Virus record (IMG/VR): IMGVR_UViG_3300044842_000168
Location: 1-64,000 of that record
From: a virus
Taxonomy: Duplodnaviria; Caudoviricetes
DNA length: 64,000 nucleotides
Strand: one strand, 5' to 3'
Shown here: in pieces, positions 2,147 through 64,000 of the stretch
Numbering within the stretch: the first letter of the stretch is position 1
How the letters are laid out: every line of letters starts with the position of its first letter
Position numbers and translations under genes: made by a program
Notes under the pieces: generated by a model
Databases searched by the model: none
What the model saw: the letters and a program-made list of their open reading frames with translations, nothing else
What the model was told of the DNA's origin: nothing

Positions 2147-2928
2147 CGCTTCCTCTTCCAGCTATCGATGGAGTCCAGGTCACCCTGCGTCGCCGGCTTC
2201 ATCTCGTTCAGGCTCCACGAGACGTAGCGTGGCATCCAGTACTTCCTGGCAGTGAGTGACAGCCGGGTGATCTCTTGGCCTGTGTATTGCGGCGGCGTGG
2301 CGTGGAGGTTGATGGATTTGATTTCAGCGAGCGGCGCGTCGGCCGCTGAGCCCCGAACGATCTCGCCAATCTCGGGCACCCACAGCCCATCCGGCTCGAT
2401 ACCGGAAGCGATCGAGAACTGATAGGCAAGATACGCCAGCTCATCATCCCCCAGTATGTCATAGTCCGGCGGCTCTACAGATGCAGGGGCAGGAGCCTCG
2501 CTACGGACCACCCGCATGACCAGCATCGGCAGCACGTGGATGAACAGCTCACACGCGACGATGGAATACAGCCACTGCTTGATGCCGCCGCTCATCGCTC
2601 CGGTGACCAGACCGGTTGTTGACATGATGATGGCGAACCAGACCAACTCGCGGCTGAAGGAGAAGGATCGGCGGCGCGGCGGCTCCTTGGCGGCGACGCG
2701 GCGGGCCTTCGCCTCTTCCTGCTCCGCAGCCGCAGCAAGCTCTCGGATGTACCTCTGTGCTGCGAAGGTCTCCTCACACTCTCGTATGGCCTGCATCCGT
2801 TCAAGGTCCGTACGGGCCTCTCGGAGCCGTTTCTGTGCGACTAGAACTGGGTCGGACCCAGGGCAGTACAGCCCGTCGCCGTAGCTGTGCGCAGCGTGCG
2901 GCAACTTGACTCGGCAGGCCTCAGACAT
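2143..2928 (-). CDS. membrane protein with N-terminal C-H-H-C motif and coiled coil
   Basis: 261 aa; CRVKLPHAAHSY..YCPG, helical segment, two hydrophobic stretches. Confidence 0.7.
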   Translation of the reverse strand: MSEACRVKLPHAAHSYGDGLYCPGSDPVLVAQKRLREARTDLERMQAIRECEETFAAQRYIRELAAAAEQEEAKARRVAAKEPPRRRSFSFSRELVWFAIIMSTTGLVTGAMSGGIKQWLYSIVACELFIHVLPMLVMRVVRSEAPAPASVEPPDYDILGDDELAYLAYQFSIASGIEPDGLWVPEIGEIVRGSAADAPLAEIKSINLHATPPQYTGQEITRLSLTARKYWMPRYVSWSLNEMKPATQGDLDSIDSWKRKR

Positions 2929-3181
2929 CCTTCATCGCCTTCCACAGCGCGTCGGTAGCAGCCTTCGCCTCGGGACAGGCGCCTTCGAACGCTCCGACGT
3001 TGAGCGGCTGTCCCTCCCGGAGCACCAGCGCGTCCACCCCGGCCCACACAGCCCGGCGCCACGCCGGCTGCGCGTAGAAGTGCAGCGGTACTTTGGCGAT
3101 CTCGCCGGCCGAGAAGGAGGCGTTGACCGCATAGAGGAGTGAGTTGTAGCTCCAGATGAGGGTGATGCGGCGCGTCTTCAT
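2921..3181 (-). CDS. hypothetical protein
   Basis: MKTRRITLIWS...; ATGA coupling to upstream gene. Confidence 0.65.
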   Translation of the reverse strand: MKTRRITLIWSYNSLLYAVNASFSAGEIAKVPLHFYAQPAWRRAVWAGVDALVLREGQPLNVGAFEGACPEAKAATDALWKAMKDV

Positions 3182-3720: not shown

Positions 3721-3794
3721 TGCGGGGTGGAGGAGCTTGGTACCTCGCTGGACTCATAATCCAGAGATCGCGGGTTCAAATCCCGCTCCCGCTA
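3721..3794 (+). tRNA. tRNA-Met(CAT), initiator-like
   Basis: TGCGGGGTGGAGGAGCTTGGTACCTCGCTGGACTCATAATCCAGAGATCGCGGGTTCAAATCCCGCTCCCGCTA; resembles actinobacterial fMet tRNA; 1:72 mismatch; no encoded CCA. Confidence 0.9.
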
Positions 3795-3959
3795 CGACTA
3801 CGCCCCCGCGTAGCCACGTCCCTGTCCGGGGACTCCACGCCCTCGAATCCAGCCAGAAACGGACGGTGGCTGGTGAGTAAGGGCAAGCAGGACGGATTGG
3901 TTAACCAGACCGTACCGTCCACGGGCCGGCGTGCTCCGCTTCAGGTCGCCGGCCCACTT

Positions 3960-4093: not shown

Positions 4094-4198
4094 GTCCGGA
4101 GCGCTGTTGATCTGGAACGGCGAGGAGCCTCATATAGACAGCGGGTCAGATCCGCTGTTGCTCTTAGGGGTAGGGTGGTTCGAGTCCACCCCCGGACA
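4094..4198 (+). ncRNA. tRNA-like RNA (CAT) with 24-nt hairpin insertion at position 37/38
   Basis: GTCCGG/CCGGAC acceptor, 7-bp D stem, AGGAGC/GCTCTT anticodon stem, CTCATA then inserted hairpin, GGGTGG-TTCGAGT-CCACCC T arm. Confidence 0.6.
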
Positions 4199-4433: not shown

Positions 4434-4552
4434 GGGGACGTAGCTTCAACAGGCAGAGCTAGGGCACCACCCGGGCCACCCAGGAAGACACGGCGCCGTG
4501 TTGACTGTGGTGGGGTGTATCCCTGATGCGGGTTCGAGTCCCGCCGTCCCAC
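4434..4552 (+). ncRNA. tRNA-like RNA whose anticodon loop is replaced by a 56-nt structured insert
   Basis: GGGGACG-TA-GCTT..GAGC D arm, AGGG/CCCT stem enclosing 4465-4520, GCGGG-TTCGAGT-CCCGC T arm, CGTCCC acceptor. Confidence 0.65.
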
Positions 4553-57907: not shown

Positions 57908-58131
57908 GGGCGACCCCGCTTCTTCAGCGAGTAGGCCGAGTGCAAGCAGGTACCGATCGGGTACGGCCCGTTGCAGATCAGGTAGGACTTGTTGGGGTCG
58001 CAGTGGCGCGGCGCCACCTGCCACCGACGCATCTCGCTTCGGTAGTACTGCCAGATTTCGGCCTTCGTCCACCCGCGTTCGTCCGGAAGCTCGCGATGGA
58101 ACCACCGATAGGCCGCTGTACGCCGGCTCAT
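57904..58131 (-). CDS. hypothetical protein
   Basis: 75 aa, GGAGG RBS. Confidence 0.6.
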   Translation of the reverse strand: MSRRTAAYRWFHRELPDERGWTKAEIWQYYRSEMRRWQVAPRHCDPNKSYLICNGPYPIGTCLHSAYSLKKRGRP

Positions 58132-58239
58132 GCGTCCTCCTCTCCCGATAGGAGGGGCCAGGAAACCACCCTAGAATGGCCTCCTGGCCCCGAACGGCCG
58201 GCGCGGGTCTTCCCCTCCCCTACCGGCCCTCGGCAGCGC

Positions 58240-58707
58240 CTAGAACGGCGCCTCCAGCTCCTCGTCCTCGTCCGCGTCGTCCTCGGCCGGCGCCGCGCGC
58301 CGCCGGGACTTGGCCGCCGTCTTCTTCGCGGCCTTGGCCGGGCGCGGGGCACCCTTGCGGGCGCGCTTCGGGGCCGGCGCCTCCTCCTCGGCCTCCTCCT
58401 CGGCCTCCTCCAGCTCCTCGGCCGCCTCCTCGGCCTTCTTGGCCGCCTTCTTCTTGGCCTTGGCCTTGGCCGGCGCGTCGTCGGTCCGCAGCGCGGCCAG
58501 CCGCTCCTGGTTGGCCTCGGACTTCTGGTGCTCCATCCGGAGCGCCACCGTCAGCTTCACGCCCATGGCGAACGCCTCGGCCTTGGTCCGGGCCTTGGTC
58601 GGGTCGTACTCCGTCACCTCCTGCAGCCAGTCGGTGATGTGCTCCTGCAGCGCGGTCGGCGCCTTGTCGACGTACGCCGTGTAGTCCTTGGCCTCGCTCT
58701 TCGCCAT
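58240..58707 (-). CDS. Lys/Ala/Glu-rich protein with acidic ...ELEAPF tail
   Basis: 155 aa; AKKAAKK tracts; strongly biased codons. Confidence 0.8.
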   Translation of the reverse strand: MAKSEAKDYTAYVDKAPTALQEHITDWLQEVTEYDPTKARTKAEAFAMGVKLTVALRMEHQKSEANQERLAALRTDDAPAKAKAKKKAAKKAEEAAEELEEAEEEAEEEAPAPKRARKGAPRPAKAAKKTAAKSRRRAAPAEDDADEDEELEAPF

Positions 58708-58832
58708 GGGTTTCCCTTCCGTCTCGGCGAACCTTACCGTGTGATCTCGAATGCCGCTAGAAGTGACTACTTTTTGATCACTTTTACCAGCTGCATATCA
58801 CAGCGACCGGGCAAGCCTACCTGATGCAGTGG

Positions 58833-59306
58833 TTATGCCGAAACCTTGTAGGCCAGACATTCGACCTTGACCTGGATATACTGCTCGCTGAACAGCTCTT
58901 CCATCCCGGGCATGGGCGTCAGGCCCTCGGTTGCGTCGTGGACGCGAAAGCCGGGGATCAGCGTGTACCCTTCGTCCCCCAGCTCGATGAAGCACTTTCG
59001 GATGACGCCGTCGATCGCGTTGGCAGCGAGAAACACCAGATCCTTCTTATCCAGTGCATCCTTCTCCAGCTCTCGTGACGCGGTCCAGGTGTAGACGCAC
59101 CTATTAACTTGTAGGCCCTGGAATGCGTAGATGATGTGGCCGTGCACCAGGTCACGGAGCCCGGTTATGTGGTACGCAGCGTACCTCGGTCGCGGTGAGC
59201 CCTCCTCGTACTGTTGCATCACGTACGGTCTGTGGCTTGCCACAGCGTCGTGCGGGAGGTCGTGCACATCACCGTTCCTCGGACCTCCTACCAGCAACAC
59301 CCTCAC
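58833..59306 (-). CDS. hypothetical protein
   Basis: VLLVGGPRNG motif; GGAGG RBS, GTGA coupling. Confidence 0.65.
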   Translation of the reverse strand: MRVLLVGGPRNGDVHDLPHDAVASHRPYVMQQYEEGSPRPRYAAYHITGLRDLVHGHIIYAFQGLQVNRCVYTWTASRELEKDALDKKDLVFLAANAIDGVIRKCFIELGDEGYTLIPGFRVHDATEGLTPMPGMEELFSEQYIQVKVECLAYKVSA

Positions 59307-61174
59307 AGCATCCTCCTCTCCAGCACAGCCTTCTGCACTGCGTCTGCGGTCAGGTTCCCGGCAGCGATCCGTTCCTCCACGGTGTTCCGCGACCGGAGGT
59401 AGTAGTACGTGACCGGGCGCGGCCGGCTCACGCGGTGGATCCGGTCCTCCAGCTGTTCCTGGTCGTCCGGCACCCATGTCTCGTCACAGATGATCATCTC
59501 GTCTGCGAGGTCGAGGGTGATTGCCACGCCGCCGGCCGTCGTGTTGATGAGCATGATCCGCCGGCCGCCCTCATACTGGAACTCCTCGACAGCGGCCTGC
59601 CGCCGGCTACCGGTGATCTTCCCGGTGATGCGGAGAGGATCGATGCCGGACTTCAGGTAGATCTGGGAGGCAATCCAGTCGATGACGGTGGTGAACTGAG
59701 AGGCGATCACGATCTTGGAGCCGGCTACCGGGTCGTCCAGCATCCCGCGTTCGTCCAGCGCCTCCAGTATCCAGGCGAGCTTGTTGCTGGGCGCTGCCGG
59801 CTCGAAGTTTCCAGCTTCGTCGTACCGACCGAACGCCGAGGCGAACTGGCGGAGTCGGGTGTACTCCGCTAGCACCCCTACCGCGTCCAGCTCACCATTC
59901 TCGATCCGGGCGCGGGCCGTCTTCTCCATCGAGGCGTACGCCTTCGCCTGCTTCGGCTCCATATCCAGCCATACGCCGACCGGGCCGTCTCCACCACCGA
60001 GCGGCTCGCCCGCGTACGTCTTGGGCGGGAGATCAGGGGCGACCTCGGCCTTGGTCCGCCGAAGCATCAGCCCCTGCAGGCTCTCACGAAGCTCGGGCAA
60101 GCGGTCGGCCCTTGGGCCGCCGATGACCTCCCCGAAGCCGTTGGAGGTGACTTCGAAGAAGCGCTCTTTCCACGCCGTGAAGCCTCGGTAGCGGTCCGGG
60201 TCCAGCCAGTTGAGCGTGCCGAAGAGGTAATGCGGCTTACCGCGCATGGGCGTACCTGAGAGAGCCACGCGCAGGCCATTAGGGGCCAGCCGAAGCCGCA
60301 CGGCACCCTCTCTCGCGAGCGTCTTCCAGCCCGAGGTCCGACACAGCACGCGGTGGCTCTCATCGATGATGATGGCGCCCCACTCGCGGGCGAACAGCTC
60401 CGGCCACCCATGCTCGACCTCGACGCGGACCTTCTTGGGGTCGTGGCCACAGTCCACCACACTCGACTTCGGACGGTCTGTGGCGCGCCACCGGCTTCCG
60501 CAGAAGCGACAGACCCAATCCACCTTCGTCCGCAGCATCTCTGGATTCACGATGATCCAGCTGTAGGGATGGTGAATGGCGGCCTCGGCCTCTTCAGCGA
60601 ACTGCTTCAAAGCCCACTCGCGAATCGGCCGGCTTCCCGCGATGGGGATTACTCGGTGCGTTCCGGAAGTCCACCGTTCGACCTCGCCGGGCCACACAGC
60701 GGTCACGGCGGTAGCCGGCGCCACGACCAGATATGGCCCAGGTACGCCCGACTCGATCACCCCGCCTATGGATTGGATGGTCTTGCCGAGACCGGGCTGG
60801 TCCGCGAGCAGCGCCCGGCGTGAGTCCGCCAAGAACCGGATTCCCACTCGCTGGTACGGTCGCGTCGCGGTGGCTTGGCGGATCGCGCCGGGTGACCGGG
60901 GCAGCAGGAGCGTCTCTCCTGTGGAGCCGGCGAGGTCGGTGAAGTAGGCCGTCTTGGCGCGCTCGGCCTTGGCCCAGGCCCACAGCCGGCGCCCGATCTC
61001 CAGCCCATCGCCGAACACCTCGCGCGTCGCCAGGCAGGAAGCCATAGACAGCGGAACGCTCCAGACGCCTCGCTTGTTGCTCCAGTAGGCGCCTGGAATC
61101 CGCTCCTTGAGTCGGATGGGGCGCTCGGTGGTGATGATGATGCGCTTCCCACCCAGCTCCGCGCGAGCCCTCAT
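59303..61174 (-). CDS. SNF2-family (SF2) helicase
   Basis: DQPGLGKT, IIDESH, LSGTPM, GGVAITL, QLEDRIHR. Confidence 0.92.
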   Translation of the reverse strand: MRARAELGGKRIIITTERPIRLKERIPGAYWSNKRGVWSVPLSMASCLATREVFGDGLEIGRRLWAWAKAERAKTAYFTDLAGSTGETLLLPRSPGAIRQATATRPYQRVGIRFLADSRRALLADQPGLGKTIQSIGGVIESGVPGPYLVVAPATAVTAVWPGEVERWTSGTHRVIPIAGSRPIREWALKQFAEEAEAAIHHPYSWIIVNPEMLRTKVDWVCRFCGSRWRATDRPKSSVVDCGHDPKKVRVEVEHGWPELFAREWGAIIIDESHRVLCRTSGWKTLAREGAVRLRLAPNGLRVALSGTPMRGKPHYLFGTLNWLDPDRYRGFTAWKERFFEVTSNGFGEVIGGPRADRLPELRESLQGLMLRRTKAEVAPDLPPKTYAGEPLGGGDGPVGVWLDMEPKQAKAYASMEKTARARIENGELDAVGVLAEYTRLRQFASAFGRYDEAGNFEPAAPSNKLAWILEALDERGMLDDPVAGSKIVIASQFTTVIDWIASQIYLKSGIDPLRITGKITGSRRQAAVEEFQYEGGRRIMLINTTAGGVAITLDLADEMIICDETWVPDDQEQLEDRIHRVSRPRPVTYYYLRSRNTVEERIAAGNLTADAVQKAVLERRML

Positions 61175-61176
61175 GG

Positions 61177-61692
61177 TTACACCTTCTCCAGATATCCGCG
61201 CCGCTCCAGCTCCTCCTGGAGCTTCGAAACCCTATCGGACACCTGAGCGATGTCGGCCTTGCGCTCAACGTTCTCCTTGCGCAGCTTCTCCACGCGGCGG
61301 TTCAGGATCTCTTGCTGCTGCGCCAGCATGGCTTGCCGGTTGCGCATCTGTCGAACCTCTTCGCGTGTCAGAAGCTGGATATCAGTTCCCTCCAGGATCT
61401 CCTGGGCACGCTTGATCCGGCGCCGGGCGCGAATCTGTTGCTTGTGCGAAAGCCGGTCGTGCTCCCGAGCCTCCACCATCCGGTATCCGACGCCTCGGAC
61501 GTTTTCCAGCGTTCGCTTGTGCGATCGCTCCAGCTCACGAACGGCGCGCCCGACCGGGATGTACACACCACGTCGCGGAAGCTTCAGGATCTTCTGCAGC
61601 CTCTCGAACTTGATGACATCGCCGATATCCATCTTGGCAATGACCTCATAGACCAGCTCCCACTGGCTTTTCAGGCCCTTCGGCTCAAACAT
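61177..61692 (-). CDS. winged-helix-like plus coiled-coil protein flanking the GGY-NN array
   Basis: 171 aa; AVRELER..KRTLENVRGVGYR wing-like motif followed by a long helix. Confidence 0.7.
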   Translation of the reverse strand: MFEPKGLKSQWELVYEVIAKMDIGDVIKFERLQKILKLPRRGVYIPVGRAVRELERSHKRTLENVRGVGYRMVEAREHDRLSHKQQIRARRRIKRAQEILEGTDIQLLTREEVRQMRNRQAMLAQQQEILNRRVEKLRKENVERKADIAQVSDRVSKLQEELERRGYLEKV

Positions 61693-61726
61693 ACCATATT
61701 CCTGTCAACAGTCGGTTTGGGATCCC

Positions 61727-62261
61727 CTGCCCTGCCTAGCCCCACCCTGCCTAGCCTCGCCGTTCCGCGCCTGACCCGGCCAGTTCCATGCCAGACCCAG
61801 CCCCGCCGGGTTACGTGCCCGGTAGAGGTATGACCCTCTACCGGGCTCCATGCCATGCCCTGCTCCGCCGCGCCCTGCCCCGCCTTGCCTAGCCCGGCCC
61901 TGCCCGGCCGCGTTTACGCGCTCCATGCCTTACCGAGCCATACCGTTCCTTGCACCGCCTTGCCGTTCCATACCGGACCCGGCCCTGCCTCGTTGCGTGG
62001 CCCAGAGAGTTTCGAGGCTCTCTGGGCCTCCTTGCCTTACCGCGCCCGGCCCTGCCGAGCCCAACCTGGCCGCAGCCACACCGCGCCGAGCCGAAGCCGA
62101 ACCGCGCCGCGCCAGAGCTTGCCATGCCCCGCCGAGCCGCGCCCCGCCGAGCCTTGCCTTGTAGCGTGGCTCGGGGAGTTTCGAGGCTCCCCGAGCCTTC
62201 CATGCCCTACCTTGCCACACCGATCCGCACCCAGCCCTGCTGTGCCGAGCCTCGCCTTGCC
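61727..62261 (-). repeat. GGY-NN pentamer array (78 units, 5 segments) split by hairpins; putative guide-RNA array
   Basis: minus strand reads GGCAA GGCGA GGCTC GGCAC...; 69 of 78 units start GGC or GGT; 30-nt hairpins at 62168-62197, 61999-62028, 61817-61846. Confidence 0.88.
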
Positions 62262-62268
62262 GCGTGAG

Positions 62269-62859
62269 CTATTCGCCGAGCAGCTCGACCTTGGCGTCGA
62301 ACCGCCCGTACATCCGGCGGAAGTCGCCGAGGCCCTCGAACCGGCCAGCGTCGGCGGCGATCCGCTCGAACTCCTCCAGCTCCATGATGGAGTAGTCCAA
62401 CACGAAGTCGGCGGTGAACTCCCACTCCGGGAACCACGGGCGGCAGCGTTCCACGCGCTGCTGGCCGATCCGGACGGTGCGGTAGTCCACGAAGGGAGAC
62501 TCGCCGTCGCCCCACAACGCCTCCTTGTCGCGCGGGCCGGCGTAGAACAGTGGGGCCTGGAACGTCTCGATGGACAGCCCGCGCTCGATCTTCTTCCCGT
62601 TCTTGGTGATACGGGCGCCTCCCAACAGGCAGGCGAAGATGTTCTCGCCGGGGATGTAGGGGCCGATCTCCTCGTCGTAGTACAGCGCGGCCTCCCAGTC
62701 GATCCGCGCCATGGCGGCCCGATCCTCGTCGGTCTTGGTGCGCTTGGAGCTGAACTCCTTCATCGCCTTCGCGAACTTGTTGCTGGGCGAAGCCGCCTGT
62801 GCGCTGTGCATCAAGAGCGGCCGAGTCCCCTTGCCGGTGAGCCTTACCCTGTTCTCCAC
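62269..62859 (-). CDS. small RAMP/Cas7-like (RRM-fold) protein, candidate Vipr-type effector
   Basis: VRLTG...PLLMH, YIPGENIFACL, WEFTADF, C-terminal Gly-rich loop AGRFEGLGDFRRMYGRF. Confidence 0.75.
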   Translation of the reverse strand: MENRVRLTGKGTRPLLMHSAQAASPSNKFAKAMKEFSSKRTKTDEDRAAMARIDWEAALYYDEEIGPYIPGENIFACLLGGARITKNGKKIERGLSIETFQAPLFYAGPRDKEALWGDGESPFVDYRTVRIGQQRVERCRPWFPEWEFTADFVLDYSIMELEEFERIAADAGRFEGLGDFRRMYGRFDAKVELLGE

Positions 62860-62896
62860 TGCGTTCCCCTTCTCACAAGGAATTGCAACTGAATTG

Positions 62897-62926
62897 AATA
62901 TAGTCGGTAGACGGATTCGCGTCTAC
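62897..62926 (-). promoter_or_regulatory. TAGACG-type promoter/operator for the RAMP gene and array
   Basis: GTAGACG-gattcg-CGTCTAC at 62907-62926; TAGACG-N17-TATATT. Confidence 0.8.
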
Positions 62927-63417
62927 CTCACCGGGCTACTCCCGTTCTCATCCAACGGCCTGCCCTTGCCCCACTCGGGGCCCAGCTTCTTCGCCTCGGC
63001 CCACTCGATGACGGACGGCGGGTTGAGGTCGCGGGACAGCGCCCGGAACCGGCTGTAGAGACTTTCCCAGGCTGAGAGGTGCCGGACCTTGACCCGGGAC
63101 ATCTTCGCCGCGAGGGCGGCGCGGATCATCTCCGCCTCTTGAGCGCTGACGGCCACCTGGGCGTTGTCGGCTGGCTCGGGCTGCTCCTCGGAGCGGACCG
63201 AGAGGGCGTCGGTGAACACCCTCTCCATGCCAAGGATGCGCCGGATCAGCGAGGCCTGGCCGAGACCACCCCAGGTGATCCTCGCCTGCTGTACGGCCAA
63301 ATGCAGGCCCTCGATGTCCTCGTCTGACAGGGCTATCACGGTGGAGTCGGGCGGGATGTCCACCCCGCCCCGCAGCGTCAGTGGCTTCGCGGCCCGGTTC
63401 CACAACAAGATCTTCAC
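62923..63417 (-). CDS. hypothetical protein
   Basis: 164 aa, AAGGAGG RBS. Confidence 0.7.
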   Translation of the reverse strand: MKILLWNRAAKPLTLRGGVDIPPDSTVIALSDEDIEGLHLAVQQARITWGGLGQASLIRRILGMERVFTDALSVRSEEQPEPADNAQVAVSAQEAEMIRAALAAKMSRVKVRHLSAWESLYSRFRALSRDLNPPSVIEWAEAKKLGPEWGKGRPLDENGSSPVR

Positions 63418-63440
63418 GCGTCCTCCTTCGGGACGTGGGA

Positions 63441-63471
63441 CACCCGGGCTGGCCGCGAACCAGCCCGGGTG
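63441..63471 (-). terminator. hairpin terminator
   Basis: CACCCGGGCTGG / CCAGCCCGGGTG. Confidence 0.55.
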
Positions 63472-63477
63472 CAGGAA

Positions 63478-63741
63478 CTACTGTACGGAAGTGATGGCGG
63501 AGAGACGAACCGACCGGACCCCCGACGCGGCGGCCGGGAAGGTCAGCACCCCATCTTCGATCTTGATGGAGTGCGTCTTCTCCATGACGCGCTCGGTCTC
63601 CTCAGCGCCCGAGATGCCGTTGATCCAGGTGATCTTCCGGCCGGCGAAGTCGTTGGGCACGGCGTCAGCGACGTCGAACGCCGGGCGCTTCGCCGCCGGG
63701 CGCGACTTCGTTGGCTTGATGGCGCGCTCGGCGCGCTTCAC
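63478..63741 (-). CDS. hypothetical protein
   Basis: 87 aa with biased codons. Confidence 0.65.
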   Translation of the reverse strand: MKRAERAIKPTKSRPAAKRPAFDVADAVPNDFAGRKITWINGISGAEETERVMEKTHSIKIEDGVLTFPAAASGVRSVRLSAITSVQ

Positions 63742-63758
63742 ACGGACCGGGCGGTGGT

Positions 63759-63986
63759 CTACTTCGCCGCCTTCTTCGGCGACTGGGGCGTCAGCCCTTT
63801 TGGGGCCGGCGCCTGACGCTTCGGCTCCAGCTCCGCCGTGGACTTCGGCGCCCAGTTCTTCAGGATGTCCGACGCGTTCCGCAGGATGCGCGGCCGGCCG
63901 TCCCGGATGTACTGCCCGGAGCCCGGGACGTACACGCCGCCGTCCCAGGAGATCTCGATGCGCTCGCGGTCTCCGCGCTTCGCCAC
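63759..63986 (-). CDS. hypothetical protein (start may lie further upstream)
   Basis: basic ORF with biased codons at the window end. Confidence 0.55.
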   Translation of the reverse strand: MAKRGDRERIEISWDGGVYVPGSGQYIRDGRPRILRNASDILKNWAPKSTAELEPKRQAPAPKGLTPQSPKKAAK

Positions 63987-64000
63987 GACGGTGGCGGCGT

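Follow-up and report, generated by a model that had tools for sequence, protein, structure and literature searches.

The window analysed here, a stretch of 64,000 nt from a Caudoviricetes genome, carries close to its right-hand end an array of GGY-NN pentamers (minus strand, 61727-62261) that is divided into five blocks and interrupted three times by a hairpin of exactly 30 nt. This arrangement raises two questions, namely what the array encodes and what the hairpins do within it. The reading that we consider likely is that the array encodes the vrRNAs of a type II-like VIPR system, with the 30-nt hairpins as the structured 3′ tails of its guides, reduced from tRNA-like tails.

The vipr locus and its guide tracts

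VIPR is a CRISPR-related DNA silencer that was described in preprints in 2026. It comprises a RAMP protein of ~20 kDa (Vipr) and vrRNAs. In each vrRNA, 9-16 YNNGG repeats lead into a structured 3′ tail, which is conserved and caps the filament; every repeat is bound by one Vipr protomer, and DNA is read by the NN dinucleotides with a skip of one base (10.64898/2026.04.26.720920, 10.64898/2026.04.26.720927). How the guides are made is known for a few systems, from enterobacteria and Pseudomonas.

The gene adjoining the array on one side (62269..62859, minus strand) has a GTG start and encodes a protein of 196 aa. It matches PDB 36pp_D, the Vipr protein of Escherichia phage SUSP1, over residues 10-191 (phmmer, E 8.6e-29), shares 35% identity with SUSP1 Vipr by BLASTP (E 2e-36) and also matches phrog_4652; we therefore refer to it as vipr, the RAMP gene of a VIPR system. 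SUSP1 residues H17, K33, R39, K82, R138, D177, W178 and R179, which bind G1, G2, Y3 and the DNA strands (10.64898/2026.04.26.720920, 10.64898/2026.04.26.720927), align with H18, K34, R40, R83, R140, D179, F180 and R181 of the window protein. The GGY-contact residues H18, R140, D179, F180 and R181 are kept in the BLASTP alignment, and H18, R140, D179 and R181 are invariant among 27 Vipr relatives.

On the other side of the array lies a vap1-like accessory gene (61177..61692, minus strand; 171 aa) whose product has a winged-helix-like GVGYR motif and a coiled coil. The assignment comes from similarity to SUSP1 Vap1 (BLASTP, E 4e-7, 25% identity over 111 aa) and from synteny, homologs of this gene adjoining vipr in Mycobacterium phage LittleE, in prophiBWHA-1 and in Gordonia phage Trine. 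A vap1-type accessory gene next to vipr is a feature of type II VIPR (the SUSP1 / P. fulva type) and is present in the window; an SNF2 helicase gene completes the neighbourhood of vipr, vap and array. The order is vipr - array - vap1, all on the minus strand. A scan of 61000-63600 returned a single promoter-like site, upstream of vipr, and 0 intrinsic terminator-like sites. Together with the homology of both proteins, the shared strand, the lack of a terminator between the parts and the promoter-like site before vipr identify the locus as type II-like VIPR. Before Vipr homology was established, an R-loop origin, a DNA iteron array and a ring-protein RNA sponge had been entertained; all were then dropped. 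At the DNA level, the only match of 61100-62900 in the phage collection was a weak one inside vipr of Gordonia phage MakoManhole, and a Vipr peptide-pattern scan of viral_contigs gave no confirmed relative.

Units were parsed as YNNGG, following the VIPR paper. Direct reading bears out the five minus-strand segments that the first-pass annotation had delineated, with 12 units in A, 25.4 in B, 13 in C, 12 in D and 16.2 in E. Guide tract A (62198..62261) consists of 12 GGY-NN units and a terminal GGAA, and is preceded directly, just past the vipr stop codon, by ACGC (62262..62265). Tract B (62029..62158) ends in GGA and is not a single in-phase tract, running as 13 + 4 + 8 units with two +1 phase slips. 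Tract C (61922..61989) contains 13 units, two GGAAC pentamers included, and tract D (61847..61909) 12 units, each followed by GGA. The terminal tract E (61727..61807) is again broken in phase, as 5 + 11 units, and has no tail; it ends GGCAG-GGGA, ~35 nt before the vap start. Tandem Repeats Finder places 21-nt tandem duplications at the +1 phase slips of B (62069-62113) and E (61762-61802). It is correct that A-D run into GGA and E into GGGA, as had been noted, but GGA does not hold up as a separate end signal, since its GG closes the last YNNGG unit and only the A is extra. Three linkers separate hairpins from the tracts that follow them, all on the minus strand: ACGCTACAA (62159..62167), which is an A and then the 8-nt leader of the next guide, ACGCAACGA (61990..61998) and ACGTAACCC (61808..61816). 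ACGY occurs in the array five times and no more, always immediately 5′ of a segment, the hairpin-less fronts of A and D included.

Guides A, C and D (12, 13 and 12 units) fall within the published range of 9-16, while B (25 units) and C and D taken together in phase (28 units) exceed it. No second GGY-NN tract of at least 8 units is found in the 75,134-bp phage genome, a single contig. This uniqueness, together with the folding z-scores of the hairpins given below, indicates that the array and its hairpins are real and not a product of chance.

The type II VIPR of SUSP1 is likewise phage-encoded and has a homologous Vipr and Vap1, GGY-NN guides of ~12 units and a conserved structured element after each guide. 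However, its tail is a ~40-nt pseudoknot, which has no sequence or topology in common with the plain 30-nt hairpin of the window. Moreover, SUSP1 has one vrRNA upstream and three downstream of its genes with AT-rich spacers between them, whereas the window guides lie close together between vipr and vap, with 39 nt from one to the next, leaving no room for individual promoters, and two window tracts run far beyond 16 units. As the tails of SUSP1 and of a Pseudomonas phage are quite different, tails are clade-specific. The locus illustrates that guides can be packed head to tail, delimited by just a 30-nt hairpin and a 9-nt linker, and the hairpin is a very small delimiter on offer for multiplexed VIPR tools.

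Targets were sought in several collections. By the 1-nt skip rule, no target in the phage's own genome rose above the null; the exact 1-nt-skip patterns of A, B1, C, D and E2 had no match in viral_contigs, and those of A and D had none in metagenome_contigs. Guide D had no target in 405 actinobacterial genomes (four prophage-bearing genomes at up to 3 mismatches and 401 Actinomycetes at up to 2). In the reverse direction, 79 guide tracts of relatives were compared with this phage genome and none gave a match above the null. With no target found for any guide, the guide function rests on homology. The locus is contained in only two soil/rhizosphere DNA sequencing runs, which are probably where it came from, and no RNA run is listed as containing it.

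Tail-less tracts directly before the vap ribosome-binding site, such as E (61727-61807, minus strand), also occur in the related loci L006, L007, L008 (3960-4020) and L016 (2500-2545). The lack of a tail on E is therefore a conserved layout and not an accident. Tail-less GGY-NN tracts are also seen before the vipr ribosome-binding site, in L001 (1694-1753), L007 and L010; L007 has a tail-less tract at 2900-3000. Coating of such leaders by Vipr might regulate translation of its own operon.

The 30-nt hairpins and their evolution

Tail hairpin 1 (62168..62197, minus strand, as are the others) has an 11-bp stem, GGCTCGGGGAG/CTCCCCGAGCC, closed by the loop CCTCGAAA, and folds at -25.1 kcal/mol (z -4.47). 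Tail hairpin 2 (61999..62028), also of 11 bp, pairs GGCCCAGAGAG with CTCTCTGGGCC around the same loop (z -3.58), and tail hairpin 3 (61817..61846) has 12 bp and the loop GTCATA (z -5.19). None of 200 dinucleotide shuffles folded as well as any of the three. The first-pass annotation had read three hairpins of exactly 30 nt, each followed by ACGCTAC, ACGCAAC or ACGTAAC and two of them with the same loop on differing stems whose pairing is kept; all of this is seen on direct reading, and GGA precedes each hairpin. Its proposal that they delimit the units of a RAMP-associated array is upheld: the RAMP protein is a true Vipr and published vrRNAs end in a structured tail. Only 3 of the 5 boundaries carry a hairpin.

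A gapless alignment was made of 8 distinct 30-nt hairpins, the three of the window and five from a sister phage (see below). Standard pairs fill 91.7% of its cells, compared with 27-49% when the partners are slid. Compensatory, two-sided changes affect 7 of the 12 stem pairs, and the observed covariation was reached by none of 500 shuffles. Four cells hold G-U pairs, which on the opposite strand would be A-C mismatches, and this assigns the structure to the sense RNA. Sequence is conserved in the loop (CCTCGAAA or GTCAKA) and in the linker (consensus ACGCAACAA), while the stems keep only their pairing. These data show that the hairpins are RNA structures under selection, as had been argued from the two stems first compared. 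Searched against Rfam, both over 58000-64000 (E-value threshold) and over the whole window (gathering scores), the array matched no family, CRISPR repeats included; the only hit was a tRNA-Met gene at 3721-3794 on the plus strand.

Two further folds were considered as tails and rejected, a weak stem that spans the vipr stop codon ahead of segment A (z -0.63) and a fold after segment E, neither of which is better than shuffles. The short CGCGT-AA-ACGCG hairpin proposed for the C/D boundary did not survive either: the sequence can pair over no more than 4 bp, around a TAAA loop (z -0.17), and 76 of 200 shuffles fold as well.

The closest relative of the window, with 88% identity in Vipr, is a phage from a soil metagenome, represented by loci L005 and L006. 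Its array is of the same kind and adds five distinct hairpins, each again exactly 30 nt long. Window hairpin 3 differs from sister hairpin 3 at 2 of 30 positions. Window hairpin 2 (62028-61999) aligns with sister hairpin 1 (L005 3665-3694); about 5 of the 11 stem positions differ between these two and are compensated, with loop and linker kept. The stems thus evolve unusually fast, possibly to avoid recombination between repeats or to evade rival vrRNAs that target tail junctions.

The same comparison bears on the boundaries that have no hairpin. At the C/D junction, GGA is followed by GCGCGTAAACGC (61910..61921, minus strand), which lies opposite a decayed hairpin 2 and linker in L005 with 27 nt missing and which we annotate as a collapsed tail; C and D stay in phase across it (80 nt, or 16 units). 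Inside E, GGAAC-GGCGA lies opposite GGAGC, hairpin 4, the linker and GGCGC of the sister phage, so that a hairpin and linker present there have no counterpart in the window; 37 nt are missing and the phase is again kept. Judged from these alignments, delimiter loss happens, and is documented at C/D and inside E. For segment B, the reported double length is confirmed (25.4 units), but the suggestion that it had lost a delimiter is not, as B carries no visible scar and its excess is at least partly a 21-nt tandem duplication.

The pentamer GGAAC accounts for four of the five internal GGA units (61965-61969, 61945-61949, 61783-61787 and 61762-61766, minus strand). Since the copy at 61762-61766 aligns with GGAGC, hairpin and linker in the sister phage, some GGAAC units may be scars of in-phase hairpin loss. 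Segment B also contains GGCAA-GCTCT-GGC (62111-62123, minus strand). In degenerate form, GGCAA-GCYCT-GGC is common to window B, MakoManhole and LittleE (L001 3034-3046; L002 3752-3764), and in the latter two it sits two units past a tail. It could mark a former guide start in B.

Moreover, near-identical sister phages from different metagenome samples (L005 3580-4030 and L006 3580-4070) differ in array content, one whole guide with its tail being present in L005 and absent from L006, and the reverse near the array end. Arrays turn over via recombination between pentamer units. The sister comparison as a whole documents array evolution through fast compensatory stem change, unit-level recombination and in-phase delimiter loss.

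tRNA-like tails of relatives and the origin of the hairpin

Fourteen further actinobacterial loci were examined: Gordonia phages MakoManhole and Trine, Mycobacterium phage LittleE, prophiBWHA-1, four prophages and six metagenome contigs. The prophage loci examined were from Micromonosporaceae, Streptosporangium, Nonomuraea and a Mycobacteriales MAG, and an alignment-based scan of genome_contigs gave four loci. In these relatives, a tail sits at the same position as the window hairpins and has a different form. A 5-6 bp arm leads into a 10-11-nt bulge with TGG; next come a TTCGANY loop on a 6-bp stem whose closing G-C pair is invariant, then the 3′ arm and [A/G]CGC. This tail corresponds to the acceptor/T-arm half of a tRNA. 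The 39 tRNA-like tails, which come from the 11 of these loci that were searched, form two stacked helices with 95% pairing and compensatory changes at 10 of 11 pairs. Their best Rfam family is the tRNA-like mascRNA-menRNA (RF01684), at sub-threshold scores (18-24 bits against 42.5), and ARAGORN calls one Trine tail 'tRNA-???'. Resemblance to a tRNA half is shared with MALAT1/mascRNA (RF01684) and with engineered tRNA-gRNA arrays, where the tRNA-like element separates functional RNAs; against this, the relatives score below the Rfam threshold and few tRNA-like sequence features survive in the window hairpins.

The window and its sister share with these actinobacterial arrays the Vipr clade, the tail position, a stacked helix of 11-12 bp, the 3′ A-CGC junction and the GGCAN-GGA guide end. 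They differ in having neither the 11-nt TGG bulge nor the canonical TTCGANY T-loop. Specifically, the window tails show no 10-11-nt TGG bulge between helices and no TTCGANY loop closed by G-C, their loops being CCTCGAAA (twice) and GTCATA. They nevertheless match the geometry of the relatives, with an 11-12 bp stacked helix directly past the guide and then [A/G]CGC, and a tRNA-like tail stripped of its bulge is an 11-12 bp hairpin, as large as those of the window.

The Vipr tree groups the window with its sister (support 100/97) inside a clade (100/99) whose other ten rows are all tRNA-like-tailed, and the next outgroups also have tRNA-like tails. Given this nesting, the plain 30-nt hairpin would most simply be a reduced descendant of the tRNA-like tail, its bulge gone and its T-loop relaxed. 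A covariance model of the tRNA-like tails did not detect the window hairpins in a search of the whole window, and the case for descent therefore rests on position, geometry, flanks and phylogeny. With filters off, the same model applied to 61600-62400 ranks the three hairpins first, with weak scores of 8.8-10.4 bits. The terms tRNA and tRNA-like are not used in the accessible VIPR-related literature, and the plain hairpin is a new, reduced tail form of an already published kind of system.

Two perfect T-arm-like hairpins (GGTTCGAGTCC) also occur elsewhere in the window, close to the tRNA-Met gene (3721-3795), at 4172-4191 and 4529-4543 on the plus strand; neither ARAGORN nor Rfam calls them tRNA.

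Guide boundaries and competing readings

We propose that vipr, array and vap1 would be transcribed from the minus strand as one precursor, in which each GGY-NN tract is a guide coated by Vipr protomers, one per pentamer, and each 30-nt hairpin serves the preceding guide as its structured 3′ tail. The hairpin would be the counterpart of the SUSP1 3′ pseudoknot, marking the 3′ end of the filament, and probably also the cognate handle for Vipr loading. Cleavage of the precursor would fall immediately 3′ of the helix, behind the conserved A, in which case the next guide begins with CGC, plus five more bases in three cases. Occasional in-phase deletion of a tail would fuse neighbouring guides, as at C/D and inside E.

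Several observations bear on where a guide begins and ends. Most arrays open with a guide that has no preceding tail, and tails come after guides, which fits a 3′ tail better than a 5′ handle. Where a tail closes an array in the relatives, ACTT and not ACGC comes after it, which makes CGC the leader of the next guide and A the last base of the tail. From this conserved junction and the tRNA-like ancestry, we infer that the precursor is cut after the unpaired A; as a first guess, an RNase Z-like enzyme makes the cut. By homology with SUSP1, the hairpin presumably remains attached to the mature vrRNA, where it would cap the 3′ end of the Vipr filament and act as its cognate handle. If the hairpin is a remnant of a tRNA-like module, this points to host RNases, and not to a dedicated nuclease or ribozyme, for processing.

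A bolder version of the proposal holds that the hairpins are minimal tRNA-like descendants which still recruit the host tRNA 3′-end machinery for an RNase Z-type cut after the unpaired A, and that in-phase hairpin excision is a normal route of guide fusion. We regard it as tentative and rather doubtful. If true, the array would be a natural, ultra-compact counterpart of engineered tRNA-guide arrays, and excision would leave GGA plus GC or AC as a pseudo-unit, giving double-length filaments (C and D with 28 units, B with 25).

The strongest competitor to a retained 3′ tail is that the helices serve purely as punctuation. Host tRNA-processing enzymes would excise them, with RNase P cutting at the 5′ base of the helix and RNase Z behind the 3′ A, and mature guides would be left tail-less once the helices are discarded. 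The tails of the relatives lend this some weight, as they copy the acceptor/T-arm half of a tRNA with its canonical T-loop and invariant closing G-C, have mascRNA-menRNA as their best, albeit sub-threshold, Rfam family, and include the Trine tail that draws an ARAGORN tRNA call; Trine guides are also flanked by tails on both sides. A helix of 11-12 bp is of tRNA-minihelix length, the length of minimal RNase P and RNase Z substrates, which we count in its favour. However, SUSP1, the sole system with data, keeps the tail on its vrRNA, where it caps the filament, and most arrays have no such module before their first guide. In the window the T-loop is degenerate or absent (CCTCGAAA, GTCATA), which makes recognition by RNase P doubtful. 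On balance we judge excision and discard of the hairpins unlikely.

A second alternative turns the assignment around, with hairpin and linker belonging to the guide that follows (hairpin 1 with B, hairpin 2 with C and hairpin 3 with E). E, which has a hairpin before it and none after, would be accounted for, as would Trine, whose array opens with a tail, and MakoManhole, where a tail and then a tail-less guide lie upstream of vipr; these two exceptions to the tail-after-guide order fit either punctuation or a 5′ handle. This arrangement nonetheless contradicts the architecture of SUSP1, leaves the first guide without a handle in 8 of the 9 arrays inspected and leaves the last tails of MakoManhole, Trine and L009 without a guide. 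Furthermore, the conserved GGCA(T/A)-GGA end motif abuts the 5′ side of the hairpin. A 3′ tail has fewer exceptions than a 5′ handle across the nine arrays inspected, and we consider a 5′ handle very improbable.

Finally, the palindromes might be signals at the DNA level (for recombination, replication or operators) or intrinsic terminators and not parts of guide RNAs, given that perfect palindromes fold on either strand and that hairpins are sites of deletion in the array, but this can be set aside with near certainty, as no hairpin is followed by a U-tract (ACGC or ACGT stands there instead), the terminator scan was empty, the G-U pairs in four cells are compatible only with sense-strand RNA, and stem sequences that vary freely while keeping their pairing argue against a sequence-specific operator.

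With the hairpins taken as 3′ tails of the preceding guides, two other kinds of array offer comparison. VIPR arrays of types I and V that are interspersed with hammerhead ribozymes (fig. S19 of the VIPR paper) also have polycistronic guides and a structured RNA thought to release them, whereas the window matches no ribozyme family in Rfam and its 30-nt perfect hairpin has no catalytic core. In Cas6-processed CRISPR repeats, the type I-E/I-F crRNA consists of an 8-nt 5′ handle, a spacer and a 3′ hairpin. On paper the window is similar, in that a stem-loop ends the guide, the proposed cut falls at its 3′ base, the partner is a RAMP protein and an 8-nt leader (CGCAACAA-like) would open the next guide. 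This parallel of 3′ stem-loop and ~8-nt leader bears on the proposed VIPR-to-CRISPR history. Unlike CRISPR repeats, the hairpin stems of the window diverge from one another, the guides are gapped pentamer codes and not contiguous spacers, there are no cas genes near the array and there is no sign of RNA cleavage by Vipr.

Lastly, two annotated genes of relatives overlap vrRNA arrays, Trine gene 40 (L003 3085-3380) and, on the opposite strand, LittleE gene 35 (L002 2172-2366). Both annotations look like over-calls; Trine gene 40 consists of array in its 5′ part, and vap actually starts near L003 3383.
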